From: an uncultured Acidimicrobiales bacterium
GTDB taxonomy: Bacteria; Actinomycetota; Acidimicrobiia; Acidimicrobiales; UBA10347
Direction of reading: 5' to 3'
Length of the DNA: 64,000 nucleotides
NCBI GenBank assembly: GCA_943788915.1
Contig: CALSSD010000001.1
Location: 1-64,000 of the forward strand
The position numbers and the translations under genes were made by a program. Below are positions 27,940-40,386 of the stretch, piece after piece. The notes beneath the pieces are model-generated. The model was not told where the DNA came from and searched no databases. It saw nothing but the letters and a program-made list of their open reading frames with translations. The stretch's first letter is position 1. Each line of letters begins with the position of its first letter.

Positions 27940-28161
27940 CTAGGCGGGTTCCTCGGTCAGGCGACGCAGTCGGTTGATGCAGGGACGCCATCGCCACACC
28001 ATGTCTTCGCCCTCTCGGCAACCGGTCACCGCAAGTCGTTTGTTGTTCAGGTACAGGTTCAACCGACCGGCGCCCTGGTCCCCGAGCACCTGGGCGCACA
28101 TTGGCCCTGACACAACTGCCGACTTATCGATGATGGTGTACCCATCGAGTGGTCCAGTCAC
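27940..28161 (-). pseudogene. Remnant of a CaiB/BaiF CoA-transferase N-terminus
   Basis: GPLDGYTIID.SAVVSGPMCAQVLGDQGA then an abrupt jump to YLNNKR and a stop; GGGGAG RBS upstream. Confidence 0.6.
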
Positions 28162-28222
28162 GTTTTGCTCCCCCGAGTCTCGAAGGAAGACAACGGTTGC
28201 AGCACCACCCGTCGAGCACGGA

Positions 28223-28261
28223 CGACGGCTTGACGTTGCTGCACCGTCGTTAACCCCTATG
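28223..28261 (+). other. Putative attL site
   Basis: CGACGG-N11-TG-CA-CCGTCGTTAACCCCTATG immediately upstream of the integrase; inner arm is the inverted copy of the right-end arm. Confidence 0.6.
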
Positions 28262-28269
28262 ATGGGTGA

Positions 28270-29675
28270 ATGGCGATAAAGACAGCATTGATCTACACAC
28301 GGGTGAGCGAAGACAAAACCGGTGAACACCGTTCCGTAGGCGAGCAGGAGGCGGCGTGTCGTGAGACATGTGTCCGCAACGGCTGGGACGTGGTCGAGGT
28401 GCTGTCTGACAACTCGATCGGGGCTTCGAGGCATTCCAGCGGCCATCGTGACGGTTGGGACAAGGTCCATGCCCGCATTGAGCGAGGCGATATCGACGTT
28501 CTCGTGGTGTGGGAGTTTTCCCGGACCGGCCGTGATCTCGGGTCGTGGGCTCGTCCTTCGCAACGCCTTGGCCGACAATGGCACTTTGTTCTGTGAAGGC
28601 GGGAAGATTTCGGACCTATCCGATAGCGCTGATCGGCTCACATTGGGCGTGAAGTCTGTCATTGCCGAAGCAGCCGCCGATGAAACCTCGGCCCGGGTCC
28701 GTAGGTCGTTGCAAGCCAACGCCGACCGGGGCAGGCCCCACGGGCGCCTACTTTTCGGATATCGACGCGTCCGTGACGACAGGACCGGCCGGCCAGTGGG
28801 CCAGGTGCCGAGACGATGAGCAGGCGGCGGTTGTGCGCCGCGTATTTGCCGAGTACAACGCCGGGTCGAGCCGCCAAGATATCGCTAACGGATTGAACGC
28901 TGAAGGCATAAAAACTGGCACCGACAAAGATTGGAGCGCACGCCGCATCGGTGACCTTTTACGCAACATCGCCTATGCCGGGCGGCGCATCCATAACGGC
29001 GAAGATTTCGCCAAGGCAGATTGGGATCCGTTAGTCGATATGGAAACCTTTCTGACCGCCCGTCGTCGCCGTGAAGCCGCTGGTGCGAACAGCACCCGTG
29101 CAACTAAAGAGGCCCGGCTTCTGAGCGGTGTGATCCGTTGCGGCGTGTGTAACGCCAAGATGTATTCCGGCGCACAGTCGGCGAAAGGCCACGCCTACCG
29201 GTGTTCGGGGGATTCGCGTTGTGTGCAACGAAGCGGGGTGCCGTGTGACGAATTGGTCACCGCCGCCTTATTGGAACGTCTAGGTTCCCACGACAACTAT
29301 GACCGACTACGGGACGACACCGAACCGTCGGCCGACGTGATTGAGGCGACCAATCGTGTCGCCGCCCTTGAAGCACAGCTTGACGATCTTGCCGTCCAGT
29401 TCGCCGCCGGTGAACTATCGGCGAAAATGCTCTCAAAGGCTGAGCAACTAGTCCTCCCCAAAATCGCTGAGGCCCGGAAGGATGCACGCCAAGCAGCGGT
29501 GCCCATCAACCTCGACATCCCCGAGTCGGGTCATGCCCATTGGTGGGACACTTTGGATCACAAATTGAGACGTGAGGTAGTCGGAGCCCTGATCGCTGCG
29601 GTTTTCGTGCACCCGGTCGGCCAAGGCCGGCGCACGTTTGATCCCTCGGCGATTTCGGTTGAATGGGCGACATGA
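28270..29675 (+). CDS. Large serine recombinase (integrase), two apparent frameshifts (about 28550 and 28805)
   Basis: YTRVS catalytic Ser motif, VWEFSRTGRD, FGYRR recombinase domain, LLSGVIRCGVC...YRC..C Zn ribbon, coiled coil. Confidence 0.9.
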
Positions 29676-30402
29676 GCGGCGAACAACGAGCCGACAGTCG
29701 CTCCCGTCCTCGCAGAGGCTTTTGGCTTTGATGCCGCCGTGGAAGCAATGCGGGAGACGGTTTCGCTGATCTCTATGACAACGCCAAGCCGTTTCAGCGG
29801 TTGATGTTGCGCGGCGCCAATCTCTCGATCTGGGAGAAAGTGTTGCGGACAAGGCAGCCACCGGAGCCGCCTGTCGTATTCAGCACTTCCACCAACGGCT
29901 TGCCAAGATGAACATGTCGGGGGCCGTGCACACGGTCACCTATCGGTGCGGCCAAGACCTCAACGGCAAGCGGTGCAACGGCCTGGTCGCCCGGGGTTTC
30001 AAGATCCTCGACGCACACCGCCGACAGCGGTGATCGTGTTTAAGGCCACCGTGGACCGCTCAACGGTTTTGTGTTCAGCCTCGATCGTGATCCCGGCAAG
30101 GACACAGGCCGGCTTCCAGACCATCGACATGTACCACGGCACCGTCGCCGACGGCCACAAAGTGGCCCAAAAGGCGGTCCTGGCCACGCTGCGGTAGGCA
30201 CGCAATCTGATTGTCGGCATAGACGAGCTCGGTCGCCAGCTCGTGGGGACCCTCGTCGGGGCTTGTGGAAGTTCGTTGACACGATAAACGCAAACTGGCA
30301 TCGGGTCTCTTCGGCGTGCTAGTTGAACTCAACTTATTAGCCCGTGCAACAGTTGCAGCCCCCGGTTTCGGACCCGGCAAACCCGTTAGGGGATTTGTCG
30401 TC

Positions 30403-30724
30403 ATGTCCGAACACCTTTCTGCCGAAGAACGCCGGCTGCGAGCCAAGATCGCAGCCCACGCTGCGCACGCGAAACACGGCTCCGCAAAACTGCTTGAAGC
30501 CGCCAATGCAAAGAACTAAGGCTAAATACGACGACCAGGTAGACCCCGACCGGGTTCTACTCGACCCGACGAACGCGCTACGGCGGGCCAAGTCCGCCCG
30601 CAGTCGCCTACATGACAACGGCTCAGCTTCCGTGCCGCTAAGAGCACGCCGTGCCACGCCGCCGCCGAAGCAGCCGGCGGCCGCAAACCCAACAAGTGGC
30701 GTTGACAACATCAACGCGTTTTGA
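30403..30724 (+). CDS. Conserved small actinobacterial mobile-element protein, several indels
   Basis: Across frames reads SAEERRLRAKIAAHAAHA...YDDQVDPDRVL...ER..RRAKSAR..YM; family recognised from memory only. Confidence 0.45.
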
Positions 30725-30739
30725 ACGAGGCGGCGAGCA

Positions 30740-30874
30740 ATGACTAGCGCCGATCTCCCCGACTCGTGGCGTGAATGGATCGCCAAGGCCGTCGCCGACG
30801 CCCCACCGCTACCCGAAGCCGCGATTCAACTACTACGGGCAAACAATTTTCCTGTACCGCCGGTGAAGCCATGA
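30740..30874 (+). CDS. 44-aa putative recombination directionality factor (phiRv1 Rv1584c-like)
   Basis: MTSADLPDSWREWIAKAVADAPPLPEAAIQLLRANNFPVPPVKP; GAGG upstream; ATGA overlap with the primase start; below the ORF-track cutoff. Confidence 0.5.
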   Translation: MTSADLPDSWREWIAKAVADAPPLPEAAIQLLRANNFPVPPVKP

Positions 30875-31919
30875 AGGCCGGCAACATCGACCAGCGGTCG
30901 ACCCGCTACGACATCGCCGAGATACACGCCGGTGTTGGTGACCTTGCCGAGTGGATCGGGCAGCGTTACGGCGTGCTTGTTGGCTCTCGTCGAGGCAAGA
31001 TCACGCCGACCGAATGCCCTCAACACCGGCCAGGACACACGACCTCGGCTTACGTGACTCACTGGCCCGACGGCGGCATGACATTTCGGTGTGAAAGATG
31101 CGATATCGGGCCCGTCGATGTCATTGATCTACTCGTCGGCTCGGCGACGCCGCAGACCGAGGCCAAGCAATACGGATGCTCGGCGAAACCTCAGGTGCAC
31201 GCACCGACCACCGGCCGCCGTTGATGGCGAAGAAACGGCCAGAGCGGAAACCGGACCCAATCACACCGGCCTTGGACAGCGACCAGCGGCCCGACCCCGC
31301 CACCGCAGAGGCCGCCAAAAGCGGCTACCTGAAGCGCCGTCGATGGTCCCATGACGTTTGGGACCATCACCGACTTGAGGCCGTCTACAGGCACGGCCAC
31401 ATCGCCATACGGCACCCGTTCAGGGTCGACGGCGACGTGTGCGGCTGGCAAGACCGGATGCCAAAAGCGTTCAACGGCCCGAAGTGGCTTAGCGCTAAAG
31501 GCCGCAAAGTCATCCCGTTCAACCTCGACGCTTTAAAGGACCCCGAACGTGGATACCTGCACATAGTCGAAGGTCCCGCCGACGCCATCACCCTCACCGA
31601 AGCATTGTTTACCGGGTATCCGGTGATCGCAGCGCCCGGCGCCGGGACATGGCGACCCGAGTGGGGACGGTTCGCAAAAGGCCGCACCGTCATCGTCACC
31701 GGTGACAACGACGAAGCCGGCGCCAAGTTCATTGGCAAGGTAATCGAATCAGTGACCGGTCACGCCAACTGGATTGGTTCGGTGCAACCACCCGACGAGC
31801 ACAAGGACCTTTCGGACTGGTGGGTAGCCGACGGCCAGAGCGCTGGCGACGAGATAACCCGCCAACTCGAATGGGTTGAACTATCGAGGCGGGCCGCACC
31901 GGACGGGGTCGACCGATGA
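30871..31919 (+). CDS. DnaG-like primase (Zn finger + TOPRIM), frameshift near 31150
   Basis: CPQH...FRCERC...DVIDL zinc finger; IVEGPADAIT, GDNDEAG and KDLSDW TOPRIM motifs. Confidence 0.8.
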
Positions 31920-33069
31920 CCACCACCAACACCGGATGGACCTCCAACTCAATCCTTGAAACGTTAAACAATCCGGCCGCCGCCGACGACATCGTCGAAC
32001 GCTCGACCTGGGCGCCCGTCGACATGACAACAGCGCTCACTCTCGAACCAGTCGAACCCAAATATTTGCGGTATGGGCAAAACCTGTCGGTGTTCTATCC
32101 CGGCAAAACCCACACGCTCTACGCCGCATCCGAATCCGGCAAATCGTGGGTGGCGCTCTACGCCGCCGCACAAATACTTCTCGGCCCCGACGACGGCACC
32201 GAACGCGTGTTGTACATCGACCATGAAGACGACGCCCGTCAATCGCCGAGCGACTCGCCGCCCTCGACATACCCGCCGAAACCATCACTAACGAAGACCG
32301 GTTCCGATACCTGAACCCGGCCGAACCACTCACCAACCAACACAACGAGCTCTACGGGCCCGCAGGCGACGACCTGCACCTAGCGCTCGAATGGGCACCC
32401 ACGTTCGTTGTCATCGACGGTGTGTCCGAAGCTATGACCGAGGAAAACCTCGATCCGATAAGCAACTCCCACGTTGCCGAATGGTTCCGCATCGTCGCCA
32501 GACCCTTCGAGAAGATCGGCGCCGCCGTGGTCATGATCGACCACACCGCCAAAAGCCACGGTGACGGCCCACCGACTGAGCTAGGTGCCCAGCACAAACG
32601 GTCCGGCATATCCGGCGCCTCATTCCTTATCGACGCTGTCAAACGGCCAGGTAGGGCCGTGCTCGGCGCACCCGTCGAAGGGCTACTACGCCTACGACTA
32701 GCGAAGGATCGGGGCGGCTACCACCGGGGTCGATACCGGGGCGATTACCCGGTCGTCGTCGAACTCACCATCACGTCATATCCCGACGGCGGTGTCACCG
32801 TTCACGCCGATGAACTCAACGAGACCGAAGGCACTTCACCGCTAGCCATCGACATCGCCGTATGGCTTCACATGTACGACGAAGGTTCAGGCTCGGCAAT
32901 CCTCCAAGGGTTAGGAAAAGACCGCAACGACCGCACGACCAGAAGTGAACTCACCAACATGGTGAAACGCAAAGAACTATCTGTCGAAGACGGTCCACGG
33001 AACTCAAAAATTCATCGACTCACCGACCTCGGTCGTGATGTCTACGGGCCGCACTTCGACCATGAGTGA
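31916..33069 (+). CDS. RecA-like AAA_25/SF4-type replicative helicase with C-terminal wHTH, frameshift near 32238
   Basis: Walker A AASESGKS, LYIDHED, Walker B FVVIDG (recovered in the shifted frame), DHTAK, GAQHK, AKDR; ATGA overlap with the primase. Confidence 0.8.
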
Positions 33070-33270
33070 TACGAGTGACGCACCAGTGACGCACACCATC
33101 TACGTCACTCACAGAGTTGCAGTGACGTCGTGTGACGAAAGCGCAGCGAGTGACGTAGGAGTGAGTGCCTTTAGGCACTCCTACGTCACTACGTCACTCG
33201 ACTTCACTCGGCCCGAAAAACTAAAGAAATGAGAGCACCGAAACAACCGAGTGACGTAGCCAGTGACGTA
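33065..33270. repeat. Iteron-like AGTGACG array with 15-bp-arm hairpin; putative replication origin
   Basis: Nine perfect AGTGACG/CGTCACT copies plus variants in about 200 bp; AGTGACGTAGGAGTG...CACTCCTACGTCACT inverted repeat; A-rich tract at about 33216-33230. Confidence 0.75.
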
Positions 33271-33342
33271 ACCGGCGACACCACACCAACACCGAAAGGC
33301 AAAACAGACCACCGGACCGAGCAAGCCCGCAAGCAACCTGAT

Positions 33343-34887
33343 TTAGTTGCGGCGTCGGCTAACCGGTACGAGTAGGGCGCCAAACCCAATCAGGCCTACA
33401 GCAAGATACGCCAGGGTCGTTGTGGTTGTGCCGGTGTAAGCAAGACCAGCAACCCCGTCGCCGGCAGCGGCCGCTGCAGTCGGGGTTTCAGGGCTGGCAG
33501 CAGGAACTGGTGAAGTGCCCCAGCCATACGGTGCGCCAGCAGGCTCAGGCATCTGGGTGAAAGGCCCCGGATACGGCACCGCCGCAGCAAACCCAGCCTC
33601 TGAAGTCGGTGTGGGTTCAGGCGCTGACCTAAACACCCGGGCATGACCCGAACAATTGCCGTTGCCCGTTGGTGCGCCGATGATCACGGCGTAACCAGAT
33701 GAATTCATCGCCACCGACCAGCCGGACTGATCGTCTGCGTTTTCGCCGTCGATATCGGCACCGACCTGCACCCACACTCCGTCAGTCAACGTGAACACCC
33801 GAGCCTGACCCGCATATCGCCGTTGCCGCGTTGTAGGGGGCGCCGATGATGACCGTGTCACCAACAGCATTCATCGCCACCGACCAGCCGGACTAATCGT
33901 CTGCGGTTTCGCCGTCGATATCGGCACCGACCTGCACCCACCCACCGTCAGTCAACGTGAACACCCGAGCCTGACCCGAATTATCTGCCGTTGTCCGTCG
34001 TTGAGGGGGCGCCGATGATGACCGTGTCACCAGCAGCATTCATCGCCACCGACCAGCCGGACTCATCGTTCTGCGGTTTCGCCGTCGATATCGGCACCGA
34101 CCTGCACCCACCCACCGTCAGTCAACGTGAACACCCGAGCCTGACCCGAATTATCGCCGTTGCCGTCGTTGTAGGGGGCGCCGATGATGACCGTGTCACC
34201 AGCAGCATTCATCGCCACCGAATAGCCGGACTCATCGTCTGCGTTTTCGCCGTCGATATCGGCACCGACCTGCACCCACGCACCGTCAGTCAACGTGAAC
34301 ACCCGAGCCTGACCCGCATTATTGCCGTTGCCGTCGTTGTAGGGGGCGCCGATGATGACCGTGTCACCACCAGCATTCATCGCCACCGAATAGCCGGAAT
34401 GATCGTCTGCGGTTTCGCCGTCGATATCGGCACCGACCTGCACCCACGCACCGTCAGTCAACGTGAACACCCGAGCCTGACCCGCATAATCGCCGTTGCC
34501 AGCGTTGTGGGGGCGCCGATGATGACCGTGTCACCAGCAGCATTCATCGCCACCGACCTAGCCGGACATATCGTTTGCGGTTTCGCCGTCGATATCGGCA
34601 CCGACCTGCACCCACCTCCGTCAGTCAACGTGAACACCCGAGCCTGACCCGCATTATCGCCGTTGCCGTCGTTGCGGTGTGCGCCGATGATGACCGTGTC
34701 ACCAGCAGCATTCATCGCCACCGACCAGCCGGACATAATCGCCTGCGGTTTCGCCGTCGATATCGACACCGAGCTGGCTCCAGTCAGCCTGAGCATCAGC
34801 TGATGGCCCAGCCACCACCAACACCGCCGACAACAACACCAACAAAGCCGCCAAACGACCCCACACACCCACAAAACCGAGACACAA
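33343..34887 (-). CDS. Secreted FG-GAP-like 7-repeat beta-propeller protein with C-terminal LAYTG sorting signal (multiple indels and one TAG in the consensus)
   Basis: Signal peptide (RLAALLVLLSAVLVVAGPSADA), seven 56-aa repeats W.QVGADIDGE.ADD.SG.SVAMN..GDTVIIGAP.NDGNG..AGQARVF, then LAYTG + TM + RRRN. Confidence 0.8.
33630..34790. repeat. Tandem repeat, about 168-bp unit x7
   Basis: GTGAACACCCGAGCCTGACCCG recurs at 33791, 33957, 34127, 34295, 34463 and 34630, plus a divergent terminal unit. Confidence 0.9.
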
Positions 34888-35121
34888 ACACCCTCAGACG
34901 CAATCAAAGCAACGGGGCACCATGCGCCGAGCGACCAACACTAGTTGACACCAGCACCACTAGCAACACCAGCAAAAATACTGAACCACCGACACCACCC
35001 CGAACACAACGACCACCAACACGCTGAAACCCAGGGGGCCATGTCGAAACTATTCGGGGCCCCTATTTACTGGACCCCGAACCACCGTCCATGCGCTCGT
35101 TCTAGGTGCCGGGGTTAGCAG

Positions 35122-35145
35122 CATGTCCGGGGGCCCCGGGACATG
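35122..35145. terminator. GC-rich hairpin immediately after the stop of the second cargo gene
   Basis: CATGTCCGGGG-G-CCCCGGGACATG; no clear U-tract. Confidence 0.4.
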
Positions 35146-35147
35146 AT

Positions 35148-36181
35148 TTAGTTGCGGCGTCGGCCAGCCGGTACGAGTAGGGCGCCGAAACCCAATCAGG
35201 CCTACAGCAAGATATGCCAGGGTCGTGGTGGTTGTCCCGGTGTAAGCAAGACCAGCAACCCCATCGCCAGCAGCCGACGCTGCAGTCGGGGTTTCAGGGC
35301 TGGCAGCATCGCCAGCAGGCTCAGGCATCTGGGTGAACGGCCCCGGATACGGCACCGCCGCAGCAGACCCTGTTGGTTCGTCTGCTTGACAAGTCTCTGG
35401 CGTCTCATCATCTATCACGGTGACACCATCACCGAGCTCAAAATCATTGTCAGAGTTAAAGACATTGTTCGCCAGATACAGATCAACAAGTCCTTCGCCC
35501 CCGTCACCCGTCGGCGGTTGAAACGTAAATTGATGGATCACCGCCAGCGTCAAACGAGGAGTTGCAGATAATCACAGTCAGCGTTTGAAGCGGTTCACGC
35601 CAAAAAATGCTGACTGGCCTGTCGGAACCCTGGGTGTCGTCGCCTATCGAGAACACGACGTTCACGAGTGTTAGATCACCATTTCCCGAGTCTGGGCCGC
35701 CATAGATGTCGTAATCGTTGTCTATGAAAAAGGAATCTCGAACATCAAGATTTCCGCCGTCCCATTCGATCGCGTCGTCGTCGGCGCCGGTGAAGGTGAT
35801 GTTCTTAATGTAGACAGTCCCCGTACCCTCGTTCTCCATATCGAGGAGGTACTCATCATAGCCATCACCGAAGATCCTGTAGCCAGCGCCATCAATAGTT
35901 AGATCGCCCGAGTCAGTACCCGAGTCGATTTCGATGTCGAGGTACTCATCATCGATTTCGATGTCGGTTGTGAGAGTGATTGTGTAATCACCTTCAGGTG
36001 ACTGTCCGTTGTAGCAACTAATGGCGTCGTACAGCTCGTCGATGTCGGCTACCTCAAAAGTGAACCCGCCACAGCCATTAGCTGAGGCAGACGGTGCCAT
36101 CACACCCGGCACGACCACAGCAGTGACCAAAGTCAACACAACCAAAACAACAAGACGACGAAAAAGCCCTCGACCCAACAT
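35148..36181 (-). CDS. Secreted acidic surface protein (possible parallel beta-helix) with LAYTG sorting signal, frameshifts near 35560 and 35187
   Basis: Signal peptide MLGRGLFRRLVVLVVLTLVTAVVVPGVMAPSASA; YTITLTTDI...LTIDGAGY...IKNITFTG pattern; C-terminal about 220 bp nearly identical to that of the propeller gene. Confidence 0.7.
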
Positions 36182-36372
36182 AAACAAACCCTCACATCCA
36201 ACGAACGACAGAAGATAGCAGACGCTGAACCTCAAACCGTAACCAACACCCACAAGCCAAGAGCACACCAACCCGCCCGGCGTCACCTGGTCGGATACGA
36301 CGTGCCCGGACGACAAACTCAGACGATAACGGCGGCTCCTGCCGCCCCTGAGTTCGCCGACCCCACGAACTA

Positions 36373-36415
36373 CATACGGGGTTTAACGACGGAAATGTTT
36401 CACCAGCGACCGTCG
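36373..36415 (+). other. Putative attR site
   Basis: CATACGGGGTTTAACGACGG-AAA-TG-N12-CCGTCG; inner arm is the inverted copy of the left-end arm. Confidence 0.6.
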
Positions 36416-39826: not shown

Positions 39827-40039
39827 ATGAAAGTCAGCGTGAGTATTCCGGATGAAGACATCGAGTATCTCGACAACTACGTGAAGGCCCACCGGTTCGC
39901 ATCCCGCTCGGCAGCCCTCCGGCGCGCGATCCGTCTCCTCCGGGCATCGGAACTAACCGAGTCCTACGCTGCAGCGTTCGCGGAATGGTCAGATGACCCG
40001 GACAGCGACGCCTGGGACACCGCAACCTTGAACGCCTGA
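39827..40039 (+). CDS. mazE: Ribbon-helix-helix antitoxin (MazE-like)
   Basis: MKVSVSIPDEDI..LD...SRSAALRRAI...Y..AF.EW; TGATG overlap with the toxin. Confidence 0.8.
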   Translation: MKVSVSIPDEDIEYLDNYVKAHRFASRSAALRRAIRLLRASELTESYAAAFAEWSDDPDSDAWDTATLNA

Positions 40040-40386
40040 TGCGCCGCAGCGAGATCCGACTCGTCAACCTCGACCCTGTTGTGGGGAGCGAAGCTGCCCT
40101 CACGCGCCCAGGCGTCATCGTCAGCAACGACGGAGCCAACACCACAGCGCAACGACTCGGGCAGGGCGTGGTGACGATCGTCCCCGTCACGTCCAACATC
40201 AACCACGTCTACCCGTTCCAAACCCTGCTTCCCGCTGACGAGAGCGGCCTCAACGTCGATTCCAAGGCACAAGCCGAACAGGTGCGCTCCGTCGCAGTCG
40301 AACGTGTCGGGGCCTTGATCGGCAACGTTACATTCCACACCATGGACCGACTCGACGACGCGCTCCGCCTTCACCTCGACCTCTAA
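40039..40386 (+). CDS. mazF: PemK/MazF-family endoribonuclease toxin
   Basis: LVNLDPVVGSEA...RPGVIVSND...VPVTSN...DSKAQAEQVRSV. Confidence 0.9.
   Translation: MRRSEIRLVNLDPVVGSEAALTRPGVIVSNDGANTTAQRLGQGVVTIVPVTSNINHVYPFQTLLPADESGLNVDSKAQAEQVRSVAVERVGALIGNVTFHTMDRLDDALRLHLDL

Follow-up and report, generated by a model that had tools for sequence, protein, structure and literature searches.

The stretch analysed here, the window, comprises 64,000 nucleotides at the start of contig C1 of assembly G000 (4.9 Mb, 60% GC), from an uncultured Acidimicrobiales bacterium, and contains an element of exactly 8,162 bp (28238-36399) that encodes a large serine integrase, a primase, a helicase and two surface proteins. 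A first-pass annotation had set the ends at 28240 and 36397, which we correct to 28238 and 36399; the parts that it named, a serine integrase, primase, helicase, iterons, two convergent proteins with LAYTG motifs and inverted ends, are present and oriented as it described (Pfam, translation, arm pattern). The features, with open reading frame shortened to ORF, are:

28236..28262, + strand: attL, in which the P' arm, in opposite orientation to the arm at the right end, comes after the TT crossover (28236-28237); supported by the C5 empty allele and by sequencing runs
28270..29675, + strand: large serine recombinase (the integrase), broken by two frameshifts in the window and 467 aa long in intact form; Pfam Resolvase, Recombinase and Zn-ribbon
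29684..30523, no strand: variable segment with small ORFs, those at 29908-30194 frameshifted; no PHROGs match
30403..30724, + strand: frameshifted ORF, small, basic and helical, without a match in Pfam or PHROGs
30740..30874, + strand: 44-aa ORF overlapping the primase start
30871..31919, + strand: zinc-finger/TOPRIM primase, 349 aa when intact; Pfam Toprim_2/3, CxxH/CxxC zinc finger
31916..33069, + strand: RecA-type helicase; AAA_25 below the Pfam cut-off, C-terminal winged-helix-like tail, one frameshift in the window
33074..33269, no strand: iteron array, probable origin, with direct and inverted copies and an A-rich spacer, right behind the helicase stop
33343..34887, - strand: cargo 1, with signal peptide, seven 56-aa FG-GAP repeats, Pro/Thr linker and LAYTG sorting signal; Pfam FG-GAP_2
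35045..35093, + strand: internal att-like junction, consisting of a Pv arm, a GG core (35072-35073) and an M arm from 35074
35148..36181, - strand: cargo 2, with signal peptide, acidic domain and LAYTG sorting signal, 344 aa when intact
36271..36351, + strand: 3' remnant of a pentapeptide-repeat lipoprotein gene, matching the last part of the complete gene at locus L051 at 90%, in opposite orientation to the cargo
36372..36399, + strand: attR, in which the TT crossover (36398-36399) comes after the P arm; a MalK-like gene lies 26 bp downstream

G000 holds two co-binned strains, with about 80 kb common to contigs C1 and C5 at 96% identity. On C5, both flanks are joined without the element, and a joint that skips the same 8,162 bp is seen in all four sequencing runs compared in detail, which come from four studies (three marine metagenomes and one sponge metagenome); the stretch of the window is present, whole or in part, in 20 of the 24 listed runs from 15 studies. 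The empty site that the first-pass annotation had proposed to look for, between an enoyl-CoA hydratase/CoA-transferase remnant and the MalK-like gene, is therefore found on C5 and in 4/4 runs, and the element is not core genome. The overlap at the window site is three bases, and comparison with other sites sets the crossover to the two bases TT (28236-28237 / 36398-36399). Inside the crossover the arms are inverted copies of each other, as expected for the two halves of an attP. The 4.9 Mb contain their 14-15-nt pattern three times: once at each end of the element and once at the end of a related copy on contig C12. The 8,162-bp insertion is bounded by product sites of the serine integrase with a 2-bp crossover, and the integrase is the assembly's only large serine recombinase (Recombinase domain). 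Target-site duplication by a DDE transposase was considered and rejected, no such gene being encoded and the 2-bp overlap lying at a fixed distance from the arm. The family III CoA-transferase 5' remnant on the - strand at 27940-28170 is also found at the C5 empty site and so predates the insertion. In run X6 the depth values (22 at the empty joint, 22-24 in the flanks, 15-38 in integrase bins) hint at an element that mostly sits elsewhere, run depth being no measure of copy number.

Every long gene of the element is frameshifted in the window copy on translation. Together with the pentapeptide gene remnant inside the element and relatives that mostly retain a small terminase subunit (terS) or capsid gene, this would fit an immobile, decaying remnant of a prophage or phage-inducible chromosomal island (PICI) that has lost its packaging genes, a reading that is largely refuted and that we regard as very improbable. 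Outside their shared block, the host DNA of C1 and C5 differs by 0.5-11 non-triplet indels per kb, the flanks of the element included, which marks these contigs as prone to indels. Four window indels are absent from the runs, at 28552 (4/4), 31139 (3/4), 35514 (3/4) and 35187 (4/4), a set that stems from the rows listed, 110 further rows existing; 28552 is an extra window base, and 31139 is a base missing in the window and present in three of the four runs. The helicase breaks at other positions in the C12 copy than in C1. Intact 467-aa integrases at 94-97% identity fall into three clusters (24, 14 and 77 members) that include many partial sequences; an intact 349-aa primase (P0116) belongs to a cluster of 143 sequences, and an intact 344-aa cargo 2 (P0126) to one of 98, with allelic variants at 74-97%. 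Most of the window's frameshifts look like assembly errors, as intact integrase, primase and LAYTG cargo occur elsewhere. Both att arms are intact and sites are polymorphic within populations, and the element behaves as a live lineage: integrated, polymorphic and intact in the population. The deletion remnant that the first-pass annotation had named as a refuting case thus stands in part, in that most helicase relatives are satellites with terS or capsid genes, and falls in that the element is no junk remnant and has intact genes in other assemblies.

Where does this backbone come from? Helicase matches occur in 8 of 400 other genomes of the order and, with a profile, in 5 of 400 of the class, and the helicase alignment A1 holds six relatives at 25-41%. 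Among 12 related loci, scanned in part (five G311 loci and a G350 near-duplicate were left out of the count), seven carry a terS or major capsid gene beside an integrase (L038, L039, L048, L291, L292, L294, L295); the other five are a prophage (L293), a locus with a TrwC fragment (L042) and three loci on contigs below 7 kb on which no packaging gene is seen (L040, L041, L050). Because most helicase relatives are such satellites, we regard the element as a packaging-less member of an actinobacterial PICI-like family and as probably derived from a satellite bearing terS or capsid genes. In L123, a 9.4-kb IMG/VR contig, a serine integrase (38% identical) and a related helicase occur together with iterons and an HK97 capsid. 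At L040:160-2457 (genome G128), a tyrosine integrase precedes the same helicase and iterons and then a convergent RCC1-repeat/SdrD-like protein, a layout as in the window that is possibly an independent cargo-type form. As an observation in its own right, the PICI-like elements of Acidimicrobiia (L039:5250-13405 in G063, L038:6576-14909, L048, L291, L292, L294, L295 and L123) use either integrase type and share the helicase, iterons of their own and terS or capsid; two carry a tape-measure-like gene.

The integrase itself is exchanged. On C12 the same primase, helicase and origin (98%) stand behind a tyrosine integrase and a xis-like gene, and are followed by three FG-GAP genes, cargo 2 and a P arm. 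We rejected misassembly as an explanation of this hybrid: run X1 and L057 show the same junctions, and the C12-type primase N-terminus occurs elsewhere, the 14 other listed primase members comprising seven with the C12-type start, three with the window-type start and four partial ones. C9 has the C12-type tyrosine integrase (90%) with a prim-pol instead, and a 67% identical serine integrase and a primase of the window cluster have accessions four apart, on contigs of the same size. Behind the helicase, the iteron 7-mer is present in nine copies against 0.019 expected per 213 bp, and the two densest clusters of the 6-mer assembly-wide are the window array and its C12 copy. At least six copies of an element-specific 7-mer follow the helicase at 11 of 14 loci, compared with 4 of 3,000 random windows. 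The origin of Staphylococcus aureus pathogenicity islands (SaPIs) occupies the same position (PMC7581432), and the array is a probable origin.

The first-pass annotation saw no capsid, portal, terminase, relaxase or FtsK/TraB gene in the element, and this holds. The Pfam scan of the element found no relaxase, there is neither a terS or capsid morphogenesis gene nor room left for one, and the host assembly gave no match to eight capsid, terminase, portal and relaxase probes, no capsid gene and no TrwC; FtsK matches lie on other contigs (C2, C12:2186, C24, C10). A true minimal phage satellite, comparable to PICMIs (minimalist chromosomal islands inducible by phages) and VEIMEs (integrative mobile elements encapsidated in virions), might nonetheless be induced by a lytic phage, replicated and packaged as concatemers in unmodified helper capsids, its surface cargo being a passenger or a block to competing phages; it would share every mechanistic step proposed below up to surface display, with transfer then helper-specific. 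The backbone is common to terS- or capsid-bearing satellites and L123, PICMIs and VEIMEs are packaged without capsid genes of their own (PMC10803314, PMC9618062), and the longest contigs of many protein records measure 7.8-8.8 kb, near unit length. However, assembly-graph bubbles also yield unit-length contigs, no terS, AlpA/xis or interference gene was found in the element, the host assembly lacks a capsid gene, and among viral contigs the right arm has no match, the single helicase query none, and alignment queries only matches up to 38-41% identity. We consider this reading somewhat unlikely.

The right (P) arm was located in C12, in one of eight congeners (G002) and in 6 of 12 metagenome matches. 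The other six matches to the 19-nt arm (L055, L058-L062) were dropped as chance, the arm context being missing. It precedes seven different flanks:

Flank 1: window site, upstream of the MalK-like gene
Flank 2: C10:632774, within an enoyl-CoA hydratase gene (L051, L054)
Flank 3: C10:504427, within a comF-like gene (L052, L053)
Flank 4: right end of a tyrosine-integrase element (C12, L057, run X1)
Flank 5: L056 outer site
Flank 6: run X16, a loose end
Flank 7: G002

Three of the seven have an empty allele in G000, and two interrupt genes (comF-like and enoyl-CoA hydratase). The dinucleotide after the right arm is TT, CG, CA or CT. The seven flanks suggest an integrase with relaxed target choice that would need only a matching core dinucleotide. 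Targets of serine integrases are enriched in competence genes, and multi-targeting is defined by more than three targets (PMC10083194); the definition needs the integrase at every site, and here there are seven flanks of the P arm and an integrase at one. The L056 outer site may be chimeric: directly left of its tandem cassette, L056:1-350 is AT-rich and unlike the host, on a contig of coverage 1.1, and represents either a chimeric contig or transfer into another taxon. Run X16, which is labelled RNA, covers all bins plus the empty joint, and no expression is inferred from it.

The same arms delimit single genes. At C10:632774, L051 is a 0.8-kb integrase-less insertion in the order flank, CG, M arm, pentapeptide-repeat lipoprotein gene (Pfam Pentapeptide), P arm, CG, flank. 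Its left end is exactly the M arm, the sequence at window 35074, and the CG core of the target is kept at both junctions, as at the empty site. Two other bodies, behind an M arm and the same signal peptide, are found in L053, L056 and L057, so that M-arm cassettes display three unrelated lipoprotein bodies behind one signal peptide. A P arm-CG-M arm junction occurs in run X4, and a comparable junction in L056 is shifted in register by two bases. The internal junction of the window is repeated between cargo genes on C12 and C6, and a Pv arm precedes the M arm in the window, C12, C6, L053 and L057. In Pv arms a CCCCG motif lies 12-14 nt from the core, compared with 17 nt in both attP (P) arms; as the zinc-domain motif of serine integrases is 5 bp closer to the crossover at attB sites than at attP sites (PMC3783163), we interpret Pv-core-M as an attB-like site that the element carries internally. 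P-core-M would then be an internal attR and L051 the residue of an excision between attL and an internal attR, a reading that uses canonical chemistry alone once cores match. The window element is itself composite, comprising the FG-GAP gene, the internal site, cargo 2, the pentapeptide gene remnant and attR.

Alternatively, the element could be mobile and its cassettes ordinary leftovers of chance deletion or of homologous recombination between repeated leaders, with no programmed drop-off. Leaders and tails that are 90-95% identical could serve as substrates for recombination, L051 is alone in having both ends, a cargo-only insertion on C6 has no att arm at its left end, and deletion variants are found in the runs (33291-34973) and in protein P0095. 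Against this account speak the left junction of L051, which falls exactly at the core by the M arm with the same CG as at its right junction and at the empty site, the independent P-CG-M junction in run X4 and the three unrelated bodies behind one signal peptide. We find it quite unlikely. P0095 joins the N-terminal 176 aa of the integrase to the frame of window 34950-35027, and is either a deletion derivative or an assembly artefact.

It is probable, in our view, that the element is a cargo-type descendant of actinobacterial PICI-like satellites whose relaxed serine integrase builds and drops surface-protein cassettes. After excision, the helicase would load at the iterons behind its gene and replicate the circle with the primase, as in SaPIs, a step suggested by anatomy. 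Elements would integrate into the attB-like site inside other elements, creating an internal attR; recombination of attL with the internal attR would remove the integrase-replicon and leave the distal cassette, an integrase-less single gene spanning M arm to P arm such as those described above, and the left junction, regenerated as attB-like, could accept the next element. A host class E-like sortase would anchor the LAYTG proteins and the lipoprotein cassettes would be lipid-anchored, so that carriers may differ in their surface coat, in adhesion or shielding. Least certain is cell-to-cell transfer, which might be passive, in phage particles, in vesicles or as free DNA. More tentatively, the system could be viewed as the equivalent, driven by a serine integrase, of an integron dispersed along the chromosome. 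A replicating island would then install arrays of interchangeable surface-protein cassettes at numerous loci, cut out its mobility module via an internal att site and leave every cassette with a fresh landing site, so that the population shuffles its coat of sortase-anchored proteins and lipoproteins.

Several observations weigh against the cassette-building satellite descendant. The M arm matches attB-type spacing only loosely, and the internal cores (GG, AG) differ from the target cores (TT, CG, CA, CT); core mismatch would therefore have to be tolerated at the first step of the cassette model. L051 is the sole cassette with both junctions, the filled allele at the window site is known from contig C1 alone, and the integrase gene itself is seen at one site, the remaining sites showing the right arm only. 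Among the 13 joints listed none closes the whole element as a circle, contigs losing rare forms, and the right arm has no match in IMG/VR viral contigs, which are not a collection of concatemer reads. Neither an intact helicase nor a full-length intact FG-GAP gene was found in other assemblies. One of the two host sortases was scanned, and its best match, class E, reaches 125.6 of 160 bits, below the cut-off and against a partial reference. The first-pass annotation had given int-xis-pri-rep-ori as the layout of phage satellites such as PICIs and P4. No xis-, AlpA- or HTH_17-like (helix-turn-helix) gene was found among the five small ORF pieces of the element (PHROGs, Pfam), which are short and frameshifted, so that a divergent one could escape. 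Because recombination directionality factors lack sequence conservation (PMC12286644), this absence tells little.

Although the first-pass annotation thought the type of island unfamiliar, an integrase with primase or helicase and cargo and without packaging genes has already been described for cargo tycheposons, PICMIs, VEIMEs and the staphylococcal cassette chromosome (SCC); its view of a satellite-like backbone with surface-protein cargo is supported, and the multiple target sites, the integrase-less cassettes and the change to a tyrosine integrase had escaped it. Cargo tycheposons of Prochlorococcus carry an integrase, replication genes and cargo without packaging (10.1101/2020.12.28.424599). 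Like the element they are marine, combine integrase with primase/helicase and lack transfer genes, and their cargo-type and PICI-like sisters, the latter with terS or a major capsid protein, share an integration-replication module; unlike it they target tRNA and tmRNA genes in a site-specific manner, with a partial repeat of the tRNA, use a tyrosine recombinase in 910/937 cases, have att repeats of about 40 bp and carry nutrient-uptake cargo (same source). The element has a 2-bp crossover, many targets and no tRNA, carries surface-protein cargo and resides in an actinobacterial host. PICIs, including those like phiRv1 and phiRv2, have the same order of integrase, small ORFs, primase, helicase and origin in about 8-10 kb (PMC10085698), and the nearest helicase relatives of the element carry terS or capsid. 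Unlike PICIs, the element lacks terS, capsid and a recognisable regulator, has cargo in the packaging slot and has no fixed att site. PICMIs (PMC10803314) and VEIMEs (PMC9618062) are likewise small, with integrase and primase and no capsid-remodelling genes, and many VEIMEs use serine recombinases (PMC9618062). PICMIs need AlpA and lie at fis with 17-bp repeats in Vibrionaceae (PMC10803314), whereas the element lies upstream of a MalK-like gene and AlpA was not found; moreover, both groups are defined by packaging in virions (PMC10803314, PMC9618062), a property that is at most putative for the element.

SCC and SCCmec (PMC7581432) resemble the element in their large serine recombinase, in having a primase and a helicase with a putative origin behind it, in carrying cargo and in their unknown transfer route, but they use one site (rlmH), and their helicase and primase belong to other families. 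The element's integrase scores 27-50 bits against CcrA, CcrB and CcrC models with cut-offs of 700-900. SCC is also known as composite arrays with partial excision, and type I carries Pls, an LPXTG surface protein. Multi-targeting large serine recombinases and integrative mobilizable elements (IMEs) of the Tn4451/TnpX type resemble the element in a 2-bp crossover and, as far as the flanks of the P arm suggest, in several unrelated targets, one of them a competence gene (PMC10083194, PMC5704250). DUF4368 occurs in 63% of the multi-targeting clade (PMC10083194); the integrase lacks it, and it is not among the Pfam domains of relatives P0002-P0008. Unlike Tn4451-type IMEs, the element shows no relaxase in its Pfam scan, although it could hold an oriT, and its core dinucleotide varies between sites; unlike actinomycete integrative and conjugative elements it has no TraB/FtsK translocase. 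The layout thus has precedents, and the element lacks a defining feature of each comparable system that could be checked (tycheposon, PICMI, PICI, SCC). In the literature available to us in excerpt we found no account of this element family or of such cassettes; the supplementary lists on VEIMEs and tycheposons could hold relatives.

Both cargo proteins end in LAYTG, a transmembrane segment and RRRN. The FG-GAP repeats of cargo 1 are predicted to form a beta-propeller; its window copy has many indels, C12 has three tandem copies and G002 a two-repeat form. For cargo 2 a beta-helix lead comes from an Atlas value of 0.93 to beta-helix/PMP clusters and a weak Pectate_lyase_5 match, and its loops vary across 13 aligned variants. 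A strict pattern finds 12 LAxTG-type tails in the assembly, six of them within islands, and class E sortases read LAXTG (PMC5148588). A role in adhesion or shielding may be proposed from these sequences.

The element documents, to the exact base, a backbone of phage-satellite type put to use for host-surface cargo, in a marine actinobacterial group that has received little study. It also suggests a testable way in which a one-way serine integrase could assemble cassette arrays and leave them behind at many sites. The island may let a population vary its coat, as its right-end sequence also flanks single surface-protein genes elsewhere in the chromosome, and this would account for part of strain-level surface diversity, such as the 13 variants of cargo 2. 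Its integrase, with a predicted attP, several natural targets and differing core dinucleotides, is a candidate relaxed-specificity tool outside the DUF4368 clade.

The intact integrase relatives P0002-P0004 (93-95%) have the catalytic serine and four zinc cysteines, and by their source records the close relatives come from Acidimicrobiaceae or Acidimicrobiales bacteria. A quick tree groups the integrase with actinophage and satellite integrases; a collection of genome contigs gave a single match (28%), and scans of phage and plasmid collections gave weak partial matches at most. A remnant of a related serine integrase N-terminus lies at C4:214716-214814 in G000 (67% over 33 aa). The variable segment behind the integrase (joint 29683-30524) is swapped for 822 other bases in three of the four runs. 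The 44-aa ORF has two homologues of 41-45 aa at 58-62% identity and might be a candidate directionality factor or regulator. Contigs of 8,285 bp, near unit length, are listed for integrase pieces, one primase and cargo 2, a circle and an assembly bubble being indistinguishable here. A promoter and terminator scan stayed at chance level, an Rfam scan gave zero matches, a tRNA scan of five loci found none, and the M-arm pattern in eight congeners gave 2-mismatch matches only, near control level.

Small islands of a second family combine a tyrosine integrase with repeated arm-type sites at both ends and are represented at C12:159210-171080 (L016), C9:208117-210903 (L020) and C13:366920-370142 (L021); the C13 island has a 66% identical integrase followed by exported proteins, and C15 lacks the C9 element at the same site. 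The cargo-only insertion on C6 (C6:125031-128453, L017:7031-10453) is 3.4 kb long, splits a major facilitator superfamily transporter gene with an 8-bp repeat, and contains a longer cargo 2 relative (NosD, choice-of-anchor Q), a Cys-rich repeat gene ending in LAFTG and the right end of a tyrosine-type island. In another species, G002, an island at L019:5100-9850 on contig C20 contains, besides a CoA-transferase and a tyrosine-type right end, an FG-GAP gene with two repeats and a pair of P arms, one of which is degenerate. Beyond the element, a ribbon-helix-helix antitoxin and PemK/MazF toxin pair lies at 39827-40386 of the window; it is absent from C5 at that position and present on C4.

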